Source of the DNA: an uncultured Gammaproteobacteria bacterium
Lineage (GTDB): Bacteria; Patescibacteriota; Microgenomatia; Daviesbacterales; UBA10151
Direction: 5' to 3'
NCBI GenBank assembly: GCA_964394855.1
Contig: CAYMZD010000002.1
Span: 1-58,574 of the forward strand
Length of the DNA stretch: 58,574 bases
In this document: piece after piece, positions 40,183 to 45,025 of the stretch
How positions within the stretch are numbered: position 1 is the first letter of the stretch
How the letters are laid out: each line of letters starts with the position of its first letter
Translations under genes and position numbers: made by a program
The notes under the pieces: generated by a model
Databases searched by the model: none
What the model saw: the letters and a program-made list of their open reading frames with translations, nothing else
Told to the model about the DNA's origin: nothing

Positions 40183-40824
40183 ATGGGTAAATCCACTATT
40201 TCGGAAAGGCAAAAACAGCTTCTAGGGGTGATATATAAATATATTAAAGATACAGGCTACCCCCCTTCTTTTGAAGACATGAAAGACAACCTGGGTGTAG
40301 TTTCCAACCAGTCAATACTCGATCTTTTGATTAAATTGGAAGGTCAAAAACTTATAAAGCGTAACGAATCCCAAGCCAGGGGGATAGCTATTTTACCCAT
40401 AGGTTACAAGGCGCTTGGTAAACCCCCTCTTGTCCCTTTTTTGGGCATTACCCATGCTGGCTCCCCAATTTCTGCCATAGAGATTAGCGGGCAGTGGCAA
40501 ACGATTTCACCGGATGTTGCTCGTCTGCAAGATGAAGTATTTGTGCTAAAGATTTCAGGGGATTCAATGGTAAATGCCGGAATTGAAGATGGCGATGTAG
40601 TTCTGGTTAAAAGTGCCAAAGAATTTTCATCCGGAGATATAGTCTTGGCAGATGTAGACGGCGAGACAACTGTTAAAAGATTTATTTCCGAAGATAAACC
40701 ACCTTATTTATATTTAAAACCGGAAAATCCAGAGCATAATATTATCTACTTTACTGAAAGAGTAACTTTGAGGGGTAAGATAATCTCAATTCTTAAGAAA
40801 GGACAGTGGGTTTCTGCTGCCTAA
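40183..40824 (+). CDS. lexA: LexA-like repressor (winged HTH plus S24 peptidase)
   Basis: GYPPSF..M, ARGI, HAG cleavage site, GDSM catalytic Ser, TVKR catalytic Lys. Confidence 0.9.
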   Translation: MGKSTISERQKQLLGVIYKYIKDTGYPPSFEDMKDNLGVVSNQSILDLLIKLEGQKLIKRNESQARGIAILPIGYKALGKPPLVPFLGITHAGSPISAIEISGQWQTISPDVARLQDEVFVLKISGDSMVNAGIEDGDVVLVKSAKEFSSGDIVLADVDGETTVKRFISEDKPPYLYLKPENPEHNIIYFTERVTLRGKIISILKKGQWVSAA

Positions 40825-40833
40825 ATCTTATAT

Positions 40834-42786
40834 ATGCCTACGATAAAGCCTAATAAATCAGAAGAAATAATTGGTGAAATCTTTAAGGATCAGGAGACAG
40901 TGTATGGTCTTAAAGAGTTTGAAGGCATAGATATTTATGACGTTTTGCATATCAGTGAGCAAGAACCGCACCGTTTTTACATTAAGGATCTAAAAACAGG
41001 CAACCAAAGATTTGTCTACGATGAGCAAAAAAAGACCGGCAAACCTGAGGAAATAGTCCGCCAGCTTTGGCTTTATAAATTGCATCACCAGTATCTTTAT
41101 CCCCTTGACCGCATTGATCTTGAAAAAAGCATACATTTTGGACGTGAAGTTCATACAAAAGCCGCGGATATCGTGGTTTATAAAAAAGACAAGATTACGC
41201 CTTACATCATTGTCGAAGTGAAAAATCCCAATGAGAAAAAAGCAATAGATCAATTAAAGAGTTACTTAAATTCAGAAGGGTGCGAAATAGGAGTTTGGTC
41301 AAACGGAGTAGAGAAAGTTGTTTTATATCGCCCATATCCTAAAGAATTTGAAGATTCCCTGGTTGATATCCCAAGAGAAAATCAGACTATAGATGATCTT
41401 TTTGAAATCAAAAGGAAATGGTCTCAGCTTAATCCCAAATTTGATTTTGTGGAAATTGTTAAACATATAGAGGAATTGGCTCTTGCAGGTTCTGGAGCTA
41501 ATGTTTTTGAAGAAATCTTTAAGATACTTTATGCAAAGCTCTATGATGAAAAACTTGCGAGGGAAAGAAGGGAAGGTGAAGAGGTACTTTTTAGAAAATA
41601 CAAAGACCCTGAAAAGACATATGAAATAATTAACGACCTGTTTAAAAACGCGATAAGAGAGTGGCCCGATACTTTTGAATTATCGGATAGAATTAGGCTA
41701 TCTCCTGTTAGACTTAATGTCTGTGTGCCATTCTTGGAAAATGTCAGACTTTTCGAAGTTGGCCAAGGTGAACTTGAAATCATAGACAGCGCATTTGAGT
41801 ATCTTATAACGGAAGTTTCTAAAGGAAAGAAGGGTCAATATTTCACGCCACGCCATGTTATTAAGATGTGCGTCCGCATACTTAACCCAAAGGATAATGA
41901 ATATGTAATTGATCCTGCCTGCGGGTCTGGAGGGTTTCTACTCCACACCATGTACCATGTTTGGGAAAATCTCCACACAGAAGCAGCCAAAAGAGAATAT
42001 GCTGGCCGCTACCTTTTTGGAGTGGACTTTGACGATAATATGCGTCGTATTTCTCAAGCCCTTATGCTTATTGCGGGTGACGGCAGACACCATATTTTTA
42101 AAAGGGATTCTTTGGATGCTAGAGACTGGCAGGGAGTGGAAAGCGAAGATGCGAGAGTTGCCCTAAGAACGCTTACACACAGATTTGAAAACTCATCAGA
42201 AGAAAAAGAAAATCAAATTTCTTACCGGTTTTTAGATTTTGATGTTTTGCTGACCAATCCTCCATTTGCGGGAGAAAACCCAGAATCCGGTCTACTTCGC
42301 CAGTATGAACTTGCTAAAAAAGACGGGAAGTTGCGAAACAATGTAGAGCGCCACATTCTTTTTATTGAACGATCACTAGATGCGATTAAACCGGGCGGAA
42401 GATTAGCGATAGTTCTACCACAGGGGGTTTTAAACAATACCAATATGGAATATATCAGAAATTGGCTGTTTGAAAAAGCCAGGATTTTGGCGGTAGTTGG
42501 TTTGCACGGGAATACATTCAAACCTCACACCGGCACAAAGACCTCCGTGTTATTTTTGCAAAAATGGGACGAGAAAGAAGAGCCTCTAAAAGATTATCCC
42601 ATTTTTATGGCGGTTTCCAAAAAAGGCGGCAAAGATAATTCCGGGGAATACATTTACAAGAAAGACGATAAAGGAAATTATGTACATGATAGTAAAGGTA
42701 GAAAAGTTTTAGATCATGATTTAGATGAAATAGCGGATAGGTTTATCGAATTTGCCAAAAAAGAAGGATTTAGTTTTTGGAGGTAA
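40834..42786 (+). CDS. Fused restriction endonuclease and N6-adenine methyltransferase (type IIG/IIB-like)
   Basis: N-terminal PEEIVRQ..ADIVV..IVEVK nuclease domain; GQYFTPR, DPACGSGGFL, NPPF motifs. Confidence 0.92.
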   Translation: MPTIKPNKSEEIIGEIFKDQETVYGLKEFEGIDIYDVLHISEQEPHRFYIKDLKTGNQRFVYDEQKKTGKPEEIVRQLWLYKLHHQYLYPLDRIDLEKSIHFGREVHTKAADIVVYKKDKITPYIIVEVKNPNEKKAIDQLKSYLNSEGCEIGVWSNGVEKVVLYRPYPKEFEDSLVDIPRENQTIDDLFEIKRKWSQLNPKFDFVEIVKHIEELALAGSGANVFEEIFKILYAKLYDEKLARERREGEEVLFRKYKDPEKTYEIINDLFKNAIREWPDTFELSDRIRLSPVRLNVCVPFLENVRLFEVGQGELEIIDSAFEYLITEVSKGKKGQYFTPRHVIKMCVRILNPKDNEYVIDPACGSGGFLLHTMYHVWENLHTEAAKREYAGRYLFGVDFDDNMRRISQALMLIAGDGRHHIFKRDSLDARDWQGVESEDARVALRTLTHRFENSSEEKENQISYRFLDFDVLLTNPPFAGENPESGLLRQYELAKKDGKLRNNVERHILFIERSLDAIKPGGRLAIVLPQGVLNNTNMEYIRNWLFEKARILAVVGLHGNTFKPHTGTKTSVLFLQKWDEKEEPLKDYPIFMAVSKKGGKDNSGEYIYKKDDKGNYVHDSKGRKVLDHDLDEIADRFIEFAKKEGFSFWR

Positions 42787-42788
42787 GA

Positions 42789-43595
42789 ATGCTAGAACGT
42801 ACATTTATTCAAAAATGGAGAACTTTTTTAAGTATTATATTTTCTCCAGGTTCCATTATCCCATTTATTTTATCAGCCTTATGTTTGTTTTTAGCAATAT
42901 CTGTTTTTACAGGTGCTCTATCTAGTCTGCTATCAATATTTGCTTCTATTTTAACCGCTATAGCAGGATTTTTTGTAAAAGAGGATTGGGATAGAGTACA
43001 AGGTAATACAATGCTAGAGAAAAAGGGACGATCTGCAATCAGGAATCTTGGATCAATTGAGCAACAAATTATTCAGATAAGAAATTGGATTAAGAATTTT
43101 CTAGGAAGTAAGAATATAACTGAGAGGGAATTAAAAGAAATTGATCGTCACCTTACTACTACTCAAATGAATATTAAATCTGGGTTAGAAGACTGGATAG
43201 ACATAGTGCCTGAATTGAAGAAAAAAGAAGAATTCGCAAAAAAATATCAAGAAACATTAGAGGCTAATATGGAAGAGCTTTTAAAAAAAGAAGCTGAACT
43301 ATTAAAAATTGGGGAAACAAATAAGGAGCTAAAAGTACAACTAGAAAAGAGGATAAAAGAATTAGAGAAACGAGTACAAGAGTTGAAAAGCGAACAATCA
43401 AATGTGTTTGGTGGACTTATGCCTTCAACCTCCCCATATTCATTCGTAACTATCTCACCATCAGGTTCTGGTACGCTATCTAATTTACTTCCCAAGACTT
43501 GTTCAATTTGTGGAAAGGTTTACAAGGATGACAATAGTCCAACTATTTCCCTAAATGATGTGTGCCCAGAATGCAAAAGACGGGGTAGAGATTAG
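42789..43595 (+). CDS. Hypothetical protein: two TM helices, coiled coil, C-terminal zinc ribbon
   Basis: GGAGGT SD, hydrophobic N-terminus, heptad-rich region, CSIC..CPEC. Confidence 0.8.
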   Translation: MLERTFIQKWRTFLSIIFSPGSIIPFILSALCLFLAISVFTGALSSLLSIFASILTAIAGFFVKEDWDRVQGNTMLEKKGRSAIRNLGSIEQQIIQIRNWIKNFLGSKNITERELKEIDRHLTTTQMNIKSGLEDWIDIVPELKKKEEFAKKYQETLEANMEELLKKEAELLKIGETNKELKVQLEKRIKELEKRVQELKSEQSNVFGGLMPSTSPYSFVTISPSGSGTLSNLLPKTCSICGKVYKDDNSPTISLNDVCPECKRRGRD

Positions 43596-43670
43596 ATGAT
43601 CAACTTTTCCATAATCCAAAAATCTCAACTTGATGGTTCGACAGGCTCACCACAAGAGGAGCACATATGA
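43596..43670 (+). pseudogene. Vestigial specificity-subunit N-terminus
   Basis: MINFSIIQKSQLDG resembles MITYSIIKRSELEG of the downstream S gene; diverges at a palindrome. Confidence 0.65.
43634..43652. repeat. Short palindrome (TGAGCCTG.CGAA family)
   Basis: TGGTTCGACAGGCTCACCA. Confidence 0.75.
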
Positions 43671-45025
43671 TTACTTATTCGATAATCAAAAGGAGTGAGT
43701 TAGAGGGGGTTTTGCGGCTGGATGCGGAATATTACCAGCCGGAATATTTTATTGATTTCAGCAAAGGCAATTGGTTGCCAATTAGGGAAACTTTAGAAGT
43801 TTGCCAGTATGGAATATCTAAGGACATGAATGAAAATGGGATAGGGTTTCCTATTTTTAGAATGAACGACATTAAAAATGCTTTCCTTGCTGAAGATGAA
43901 TTAAAATATGCAGATATACCTGATGACCTTTTAGCAGAATATAAACTTGAGAGAGATGACATACTATTTAATAGGGTAAACGCAGAAGAATTTGTTGGCA
44001 GGACAGGAATAGTTAAACTAATTGATCATTTTGTTTTTGCTTCCTATCTAATTAGATTACGTACAAAAAAGAATGGAATTATAAAGCCTGATTATCTAAA
44101 TATTTTCTTAAATTCAAGTTATGGTATTAAACAAATAAGAAAATTTAGAAGACGTGCAGTAAATCAAGCTAATGTAAATGCTGAAGAACTAAAACAAATA
44201 AGAATCCCTGTTTTATCGCTAAACATTCAGGAAGAAATCAGTAAATTATCAAATGAATCATGGAATCAAACAGAACAGTCGAAATCTTATTACCAACAGG
44301 CCGAGAACTTCCTTTTGGAGGAGTTGGGATTTAAGGACTTTCGGGTTGAAGATGATTTAAGTTTTGTTGTTAATCTTTCAGACGTAAAATCTGCAAAACG
44401 GGTTGATGCGGATTATTTCCAGCCAAAGTATCAAAAGTTAGTTGAACAGATTGAAAAACATAATGCAAAACTACTTGGTAATTTAGTTTCGATGAAGAAA
44501 GGTTTTGAGCCGGGAAGTGAGGCATATCAAGAAGAAGGTAAACTTTTCATTAGAGTTAGCAGTCTCTCTAAATTTGGCATTGAGGATAAAGATCAAAAAT
44601 ATTTAAGTGATGATTTATACGGAAAACTTAAGGTAAACTTTGAACCAAAAATAGGCGAAATTTTATTAACAAAGGATGCAACTCCTGGTATAGCCTATGT
44701 TTTAAAAGAAGCAGTAGAAGGAATAATATCTGGGGGAATGATGAGATTAAAGGTAAATAATGATATTGACCCAGAATATCTAGCTTTATGTATAAGTTCT
44801 TTAACTGGTCAAATGCAAGCAGGAAGAGATGCAGGAGGATCAATAATAGCTCATTGGAAACCAGAACAAATCAAGAATTTATTAATTCCAGTTCTACCAA
44901 AACCCACCCAACAAAAAATTGCAGAGTTGGTCAGGAAATCCCATGAAGCAAGGAAGAAATCAAAGCAGCTTTTAGAAGAGGCAAAAAGAAAAGTTGAAGA
45001 AATGATAGAGGAGAAATCAAATTAA
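43667..45025 (+). CDS. hsdS: Restriction-modification specificity subunit with two TRDs
   Basis: RLDAEYY and RVDADYF repeats, FASYLIRLR, YLNIFLNS, L.IP.L..QQKIA. Confidence 0.9.
   Translation: MITYSIIKRSELEGVLRLDAEYYQPEYFIDFSKGNWLPIRETLEVCQYGISKDMNENGIGFPIFRMNDIKNAFLAEDELKYADIPDDLLAEYKLERDDILFNRVNAEEFVGRTGIVKLIDHFVFASYLIRLRTKKNGIIKPDYLNIFLNSSYGIKQIRKFRRRAVNQANVNAEELKQIRIPVLSLNIQEEISKLSNESWNQTEQSKSYYQQAENFLLEELGFKDFRVEDDLSFVVNLSDVKSAKRVDADYFQPKYQKLVEQIEKHNAKLLGNLVSMKKGFEPGSEAYQEEGKLFIRVSSLSKFGIEDKDQKYLSDDLYGKLKVNFEPKIGEILLTKDATPGIAYVLKEAVEGIISGGMMRLKVNNDIDPEYLALCISSLTGQMQAGRDAGGSIIAHWKPEQIKNLLIPVLPKPTQQKIAELVRKSHEARKKSKQLLEEAKRKVEEMIEEKSN

Follow-up and report, generated by a model that had tools for sequence, protein, structure and literature searches.

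Phase-variable hsdS loci, such as those of Mycoplasma and Streptococcus pneumoniae, carry invertible or shuffling genes for the specificity subunit (S) of a restriction-modification (R-M) system, together with partial genes that bear target-recognition domains (TRDs), inverted repeats and a recombinase. In the polymorphic rhs loci, displaced fragments of a conserved gene region, the rhs-CT orphan modules, are found beside the live gene (PMC3967940). An accessory gene may also be embedded in an R-M operon, as is prrC in EcoprrI, and a two-subunit architecture, consisting of a fused restriction-modification subunit (RM) and S, has been described for the BcgI-like Type IIB enzymes (both in PMC3874165). 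Finally, homology-facilitated illegitimate recombination has been reported in natural transformation (de Vries and Wackernagel 2002, as summarised in PMC6382021). Here we analyze a 58,574-nt stretch of DNA (hereafter, the window; contig CAYMZD010000002.1) from a 764-kb genome, G000, of a member of the candidate phyla radiation (CPR), in which a 24-codon mini-open reading frame (mini-ORF) lies immediately upstream of the S gene in an operon of the order lexA-RM-X-S, X being a cassette gene. Loci fetched for comparison are given L-numbers and proteins P-numbers. Judging from its sequence, the mini-ORF is a leftover of S-gene codons 1-16, directly abutting the live gene and interrupted by a 23-nt hairpin element.

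The closest analogy is that with the displaced orphan fragments of rhs. Both would be left when modules arrive by horizontal transfer, both consist of conserved sequence, and usually neither has an independent function. However, the remnant of the S gene is a 5' end located before the live gene, it is short (16-22 codons, including those of other loci described below), and it has no variable (TRD) part and therefore cannot recombine back to change function. What is more, the modules added in the RM-S operons are unrelated accessory genes and not alternative protein ends. In having unrelated genes between the genes for core R-M subunits, namely X and about 50 other cassette families, these operons resemble the prrC case, from which they differ in that the slot is hypervariable and carries, as markers, remnants of S 5' ends (in one case of an RM 3' end). 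As for phase-variable hsdS loci, the window shares with them an extra partial S sequence beside the live S. That said, the genome has one S gene, the fragment is in direct orientation and without a TRD, and there are neither inverted repeats at the locus nor a recombinase in the operon.

Results

The mini-ORF (43596..43670, forward strand) translates as MINFSIIQKSQLDGSTGSPQEEHI followed by a stop. Its ATG comes immediately after the TAG of gene X, with no spacer (43593-43598), and its TGA (43668-43670) overlaps the ATG of the S gene (43667-43669) in an ATGA, just as the original prediction described it. The resemblance to an S start that the same prediction claimed for this peptide holds as well. 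Namely, in a consensus drawn from the best approximately 120 S homologues among thousands, the proteins start almost uniformly with MI[TN][YF]SIIQKSQLEGAxRLDAEYYQPEY (P0012 and P0015 start with MINFSIIQKSQLEG), and the mini-ORF matches this family consensus, 37 of its first 41 nt being identical to the S start of L005. A check against profiles of S N-termini, in which the lack of a match had been proposed as a refutation, gave a match both for protein (independent E-value (i-E) 0.009; hmmsearch, six-frame scan of the fetched loci) and for DNA (E 0.0015; nhmmer, approximately 0.7 Mb of the fetched loci). Since both profiles match, the mini-ORF is derived from the 5' end of an S gene, and the idea that it is a scar stands in kind.

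Where exactly does the similarity end? It had been predicted to be lost where TGGTTCGAC begins. It does stop there, but it resumes 23 nt later, for 10 nt (AGGAGCACAT). In other words, the remnant consists of two parts, the first (43596..43633, forward strand) comprising codons 1-12 and two nucleotides of codon 13 (MINFSIIQKSQL, GA), and the second (43657..43666, forward strand) comprising the third base of codon 13 and codons 14-16 (A GGA GCA CAT, i.e. (E)GAH). Between them lies the hairpin element TGGTTCGACAGGCTCACCACAAG (43634..43656, forward strand), with a 4-bp stem, TGGT/ACCA, and the loop TCGACAGGCTC. If the 23-mer is deleted from 43596-43666, what is left is ATGATCAACTTTTCCATAATCCAAAAATCTCAACTTGA joined to AGGAGCACAT, a 48-nt sequence that reads MINFSIIQKSQLEGAH, which is the family consensus. 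The S starts of L106 and L107 each share 42 of these restored 48 nt, the 10 nt beyond the element match codons 13-16 of the L107 S gene at 10 of 10 positions, and removal of the element lifts the S N-terminus profile score from 21 to 31 bits. Because there is S-like sequence on both sides of it, the element is an insertion within the remnant and not a junction; the palindrome had been placed at the breakpoint, and in this respect the original prediction does not hold. The true junction lies between 43666 and 43667, with the old codon 16 (CAT) on one side and the live gene's ATG on the other.

Without the 23-mer, the two copies would be in frame and would form a 16-residue N-terminal tandem duplication. 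The 23-mer shifts the frame, and it is therefore that the upstream copy reads as a separate mini-ORF ending in the ATGA on the S start. Apart from the element, the remnant contains no stop and no indel. It also contains no target-recognition domain, since the S-like sequence does not go past codon 16 and so stops short of RLDAEYY and TRD1, and it can therefore have no role in target recognition. The old codons 13-15 supply a Shine-Dalgarno-like GGAG located 5 nt before the S ATG. Given this motif and the succession of TAG, ATG and ATGA, translational coupling of S to the upstream frames is plausible. A second public assembly record of the organism (L153) carries the same sequence with 100% identity. 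We also considered whether the remnant's GAAGG might be a general ribosome-binding site for incoming cassettes, and discarded this, as the spacing suits only the window and L009.

The element itself was first to be distinguished from a chance palindrome with 4-bp arms. Its 19-mer palindrome occurs once within the window, and it was the further copies found in a search of the whole genome that overturned the chance explanation. In particular, G000 has three copies of the 23-mer with at most one mismatch, plus looser ones: beside that in the remnant, there is an exact copy at C2:73141-73163(-), in an SbcC/Rad50-like ORF, and a copy with one mismatch at C4:32986-33008, in polA just past the QVHDELLFECD motif. 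The latter two are in frame in live genes and read GS[TA]GSPQ. With up to two mismatches, the 23-mer is present in 18 of 61 family genomes, at 1-3 copies each, while the reversed-pattern control gave 0; the relatives carry it at the same polA site, in the C-terminal tail of dnaK and in the SbcC-like gene. At the polA site after QVHDELLFECD, the element is found in 6-9 of 30 loci (the range hinges on the counting of one degenerate and two nested forms), and the remaining loci read CDPKSVKE. The loop motif TC[GA][AG]CA[AGT][GA]CTC (mostly TCGRCAGGCTC) has 22 matches in G000, 11 of which are flanked by complementary sequences of at least 4 bp (stems of about 4-6 bp), against approximately 0.4 expected by chance, and among these matches the stems compensate (CCCT/AGGG, CACT/AGTG, TGGT/ACCA). 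Since the copies are dispersed, the control is empty, polA has the element in some genomes and lacks it in others, and the stems compensate, the 23-mer represents a real family of small mobile hairpins.

How does this family compare with known ones? Like the Rickettsia palindromic elements (RPE) and the repetitive extragenic palindromes of the REP-RAYT type, it is a short, GC-rich, dispersed hairpin with compensating stems, and it likewise can sit in frame in the loops of essential proteins and is present in some genomes but not in others. Unlike them, it is only 23 nt long, is present at 1-3 copies per genome and is almost invariant across genera. The genome does have two Y1-transposase genes (Y1_Tnp), yet none of the copies of the loop motif is found in the flanks of either. 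Moreover, the copy in the window sits in a dead gene fragment, out of frame with the original reading. A search of the literature for the DNA or the peptide of the element yielded nothing relevant. The window offers a clean, datable case of a 23-nt in-frame hairpin family landing in non-essential DNA.

Several further observations on the element were made in passing. Across genera, the codons that flank the 23-mer TGGTTCGRCARGCTCACCACAAG diverge but the 23-mer itself hardly changes, and its reading is invariably GS[TA][GS]SPQ, at shared sites of polA (G000 C4, L111, L117, L124-L126, L137), of the dnaK tail (L109, L110, L114, L115) and of the SbcC-like gene (G000 C2). Such invariance implies that the element has either entered these sites again and again or been selected for its DNA or RNA as such. 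In the polA genes of L140 and L141, after QVHDELLFECD, a second hairpin of the same family is nested in the loop of the first (GGTTCGACAAG, followed by CCCTTCGGCAGTGAGCTCAGGG and so on, followed by GCTCACCACAAG), and the frame stays open despite the nesting. Finally, an intact S gene in L024 (5004-5060) reads EGSTRIDAEYY and has GGTTCGACAAG at codons 14-17; these 11 nt equal the 5' half of the hairpin element and stand at the position of S that matches the insertion in the window. They may be a footprint, or a target that is hit repeatedly. From this match, GGTTCGACA was at one point taken as S codons 14-16 of the window, a reading that gave way to the copies of the 23-mer elsewhere and to the restored EGAH.

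The remnant in the window is one of several. Approximately 100 related loci were fetched, and the order lexA-RM-...-S is conserved among them. For statistics on the gap between RM and S, we used the 72 non-identical loci that have both the RM end and the S start: the two genes are adjacent in 30 of these, and in the other 42 they are separated by 235-1988 nt of cassettes. The content of the gap comes from about 50 unrelated gene families, a gene with an NYN domain being the commonest. Five other S 5' remnants were found, in four loci (L009, two in L045, L051 and L079). All five are on the S strand and within the RM-S gap, where they separate unrelated cassette genes, and remnants are confined to cassette-bearing loci. 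In four of the five, the ATG adjoins or overlaps the stop of the cassette gene before it, the start of that in L009 being degraded, and after each of the five the next cassette gene begins within 0-24 nt. They end at codons 16, 17, 20, 20 and 22.

No motif common to the sequences after the remnants was found across the remnant-bearing loci, and no recombinase or integrase was found among the called genes of the loci inspected; with neither an integrase nor a shared attC-type motif, these gaps do not have the makings of an integron-like array. Our search of the literature for hsdS remnants turned up nothing relevant, and in the literature searched we found no description of a hypervariable RM-S slot marked by remnants. 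An N-terminal extension of P0121, which at first looked like an in-frame duplicate, proved to be an over-extended gene call overlapping the upstream gene.

Two of the loci show variations on this theme. In L051 (4322-4996), a 224-amino-acid cassette ORF opens with 20 codons of the S gene (MTFSIIQKSQLEGAQRLDA) fused in frame, and the cassette appears, from this arrangement, to use the old S start signals. In L052 (4234-4308), the gap holds a piece of the RM C-terminus (23 bits, i-E 1e-6) just before a cassette gene, and this RM 3' fragment makes L052 the sole locus with a mirror image of the S 5' remnants.

As regards the origin of the two S starts in the window, they are quite different from one another. 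Over codons 1-16, the remnant and the live gene are identical at 27 of 48 positions (56%), and their synonymous differences include multi-step ones (TCT to AGT, CTT to TTA). Codons 1-16 of the live gene (43667-43714) are of a rare type that is common to it and L045 (39/48, 81%). To the remaining homologues in the comparison their identity is 47-66%, and this also holds for the homologues that the rest of the gene most resembles. Namely, the TRD2 half of the live S groups with L106 and L107, whose own starts resemble the remnant (42/48). Directly downstream, codons 17-32 (RLDAEYYQPEYFIDFS; 43715..43762, forward strand) form the most DNA-conserved block of the S 5' region and are a candidate homologous anchor: among 34 distinct S genes, the mean pairwise nucleotide identity is 80% for codons 17-32, as compared with 69% for codons 1-16 and 62% for codons 33-48, and in the window the block is 77-89% identical to all homologues compared. 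To judge from these comparisons, only codons 1-16 of the live gene look foreign to its remainder. Since this is so, and the rest groups with L106 and L107, a short exchange ending in codons 17-32 fits at least as well as, and is at least as parsimonious as, replacement of the whole allele.

The recoded start (AGT GAR TTA GAR for S-E-L-E) occurs in only two S genes, that of the window (43667-43714) and that of L045 (4628-4675), and both are in remnant-bearing loci, an association for which we estimate a chance probability of approximately 0.004. The two genes may share this start by common descent, or homology to the remnant upstream may have been selected against.

Discussion

Starting from the observed anatomy, the family membership of both pieces and the recurrence in other loci, we infer, as follows, how the DNA recombined, in what order this happened and how S is coupled. 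DNA carrying another S 5' end would have been joined by an illegitimate junction between the old codon 16 and the ATG. The other crossover probably took place in flanking conserved sequence, i.e. in the 48-nt block of S codons 17-32 or in the RM gene. The remnant would then be either what is left of the start formerly resident there or a flank that came in with an imported X cassette, and for a time the locus would have had an in-frame tandem copy of the S start, until at some point the 23-nt mobile hairpin inserted in codon 13 of the dead copy. Since then, ribosomes leaving X would read the mini-ORF and terminate on the S start codon, keeping S translationally coupled as a passive effect only. 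We consider this explanation as a whole, consisting of a remnant from an illegitimate junction, turnover of cassettes, later insertion of the hairpin and passive coupling, to be probable.

In the related operons, the same process would add or swap cassettes between RM and S, leaving remnants that extend to codons 16-22. Segments from related operons would enter by way of one conserved flank (the RM 3' end or the S start), their opposite end being joined illegitimately. Homology-facilitated illegitimate recombination, with one homologous anchor and one illegitimate joint, predicts a foreign segment flanked on one side by a truncated anchor-adjacent gene, which is what is observed; that it operates in RM-S operons is pure inference on our part, and the joints share no motif. 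The range of end-points is probably narrow for two reasons. Namely, remnants shorter than approximately 12 codons would escape detection, while any that took in codons 17-32 would repeat part of the live gene in direct orientation, and recombination between the repeats would remove them. The remnant would thus be a by-product of recombination in an RM-S cassette hotspot, that is to say debris and not a switch.

It should still be noted that a number of points weigh against this account. A mosaic test of RM revealed no boundary that would support import of a block made of the RM 3' end, X and the start of S, and the boundaries of the cassettes could not be mapped at the DNA level between L079 and L024, which are too diverged. 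In polA and the other live genes, where the copies of the element are in frame, the inserted unit cannot be the 23-mer alone, and the boundaries of the unit can be placed only to within 1-2 nt. As to the 10 nt past the element, their AGGAG could be a plain ribosome-binding site, and it is only the extra CACAT and the exact register that argue for their S ancestry, a match that we estimate to arise by chance with a probability of about 1e-3 or less. Finally, the RNA fold of 43590-43680 is no better than that of shuffled sequences (z = -0.64).

Could a different history have led to the same anatomy? One could imagine, with the original prediction but leaving its palindrome aside, that X was natively followed by an older S gene, which from codon 17 on gave way to a complete incoming S gene with other TRDs, thereby changing specificity. 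The stop of X abuts the ATG of the remnant just as the homologues of X abut intact S genes in L016 and L020, and the low identity of the two starts (27/48) does mean that they come from different alleles. However, the foreign look is limited to codons 1-16 of the live gene (81% to L045 versus 47-66% to the others), the rest of the gene groups with L106 and L107, whose starts are remnant-like (42/48), and of the older TRD no trace survives, all of which makes replacement of the whole allele rather unlikely in our judgment. That the two copies arose in place, by slippage or unequal crossing-over duplicating the first 48 nt of S, with later divergence and no foreign DNA, would account for the fact that the copy is exactly 48 nt long and in register, and L051, where the remnant and the live S start are approximately 93% identical, looks as local duplication predicts. 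Yet in the window the copies are only 56% identical and differ by multi-step synonymous recoding, it is the dead copy that is near the family consensus while the live one is of the rare L045 type (39/48), and identical 48-nt tandem repeats should collapse well before such divergence is reached. We therefore hold a duplication in place to be improbable.

The same grade is given to the possibility that the mini-ORF and its hairpin are a selected leader which sets the S:RM ratio or senses a signal, a function that would be compatible with an origin as a scar. Here one can point to the tight geometry, with TAG next to ATG, the ATGA and the GGAG 5 nt before the S ATG, as well as to the lack of any stop or indel other than the element. 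That said, such an arrangement is unique to G000 among the approximately 100 loci, the other remnants end in various ways (by a frameshift, by fusion in frame, or at a stop that precedes the next gene by 10-25 nt), and the RNA fold is not significant. Much less credible still is the idea, put forward in the original prediction, that the repeats are linked to specificity switching, with the hairpin as the site of S allele exchange. The element does lie within the remnant, and the 11 nt of its 5' half (GGTTCGACAAG) at the same codons of the intact L024 S gene hint at recurrent hits. But S-derived sequence on both sides marks it as an insertion, it is absent from all five remnants in other loci, its other copies are in polA, dnaK and SbcC-like genes, which are unrelated to R-M, the remnant has no TRD to exchange, and the genome has one S gene and the operon no recombinase, so that we regard switching of this kind as very improbable. 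The least likely of all is an artefact of assembly, in which two strain variants would have been collapsed at the conserved S start into a false tandem. The genome is indeed metagenome-assembled, and the S start is conserved and repeat-like. However, the identical sequence is present in a second public record, in which the contig is of another length (283 kb against 211 kb), and an artefact is therefore unlikely; analogous remnants are also found in unrelated assemblies of other projects, the junction is clean, and the element is only in the dead copy.

To return to the S-start remnant as a by-product of cassette turnover, the mini-ORF taken alone is ordinary genome debris, a gene remnant holding a mobile hairpin. 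Together with the five others, it marks the RM-S slot of a widespread CPR restriction system as one that turns over accessory genes through recombination at a conserved S start. What is more, the remnants provide a simple way to find new genes linked to R-M, probably defence genes, and to date their arrival. A bolder extension would see the lexA-RM-S operons of CPR as a recombinase-free capture platform, in which recombination is anchored in S codons 1-32 and the RM 3' end, remnants of 16-22 codons couple the next gene, and the 23-nt hairpin may hit the S position repeatedly. We put this forward as a speculation that we ourselves find doubtful. The captured accessory cassettes would in that case probably be anti-phage, and the idea of repeated targeting rests on the remnant in the window and on the live S gene of L024 with its GGTTCGACAAG footprint.

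Other Features of the Operon

The first gene of the operon (40183..40824, forward strand) encodes a LexA-like repressor (Pfam LexA_DNA_bind and Peptidase_S24; 150 bits to TIGR00498, over the cut-off) and precedes RM in most related loci. It is followed by RM (40834..42786, forward strand), a 650-amino-acid protein in which a PD-(D/E)xK-type HSDR_N_2 domain is fused to an N6-adenine methyltransferase (Pfam HSDR_N_2 and N6_Mtase; PADLOC MTase_I PDLC03034, 540 bits). Gene X (42789..43595, forward strand) encodes 268 amino acids from its ATG (268/272 amino acids), with membrane and coiled-coil segments and C-terminal CxxC..CxxC segments. It represents one of the approximately 50 unrelated gene families that occupy the RM-S gap. 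Family searches with X gave only weak matches, all due to the coiled coil and none informative, and no homologue was found in the genomes of 60 relatives; among the fetched loci, homologues lie directly 5' of S, in the same slot, in L016/L043 and L020/L053. The live S gene (43667..45025, forward strand) encodes 452 amino acids with two TRDs (Pfam Methylase_S in two stretches, and homologues) and is present in a single copy in the whole genome.

No match to TIGR00348, the hsdR model, was found anywhere in the genome. Since there is one S gene and no hsdR, the lexA-RM-X-S operon has the two-subunit RM and S layout of BcgI-like Type IIB enzymes, and the architectural features of such enzymes were in fact found: a nuclease and a gamma-type N6-methyltransferase in one chain, a separate S with two TRDs and no HsdR motor. 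Enzymes of this type cleave to either side of a bipartite site and have a 2RM:1S stoichiometry. Membership in MADS systems was also examined and does not follow from the scores (MADS2, 296 bits versus a cut-off of 720; MADS5, 127 versus 400). The locus consists of lexA, RM, X and S only, other mad genes not being found there, and there is no recombinase among these four genes.

Some minor observations concern the related loci. The NYN-domain (RNase-like) gene, the most frequent cassette, always takes the RM-proximal position in the gap, and is found directly after RM in L006, L024, L033, L051, L052, L063, L070 and L103. In L105 (1625-1790), all that decay has left of the S gene is about 50 codons, interrupted by a stop and immediately next to a holB-like gene; the R-M system there has therefore been lost. 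In the window and in about 45 related loci, the operon has a conserved first gene, for a LexA-type repressor that exceeds the TIGR00498 cut-off, an arrangement that suggests damage-responsive control of the restriction system. Finally, the public annotation begins S at Met54 (P0002, 399 amino acids; window 43667-43825, L153:2771-3000), and it thereby leaves the conserved true S start, the remnant and the hairpin inside a seemingly non-coding gap of 230 nt. Our analysis corrects this annotation, in which both the true S start and the remnant are missing.

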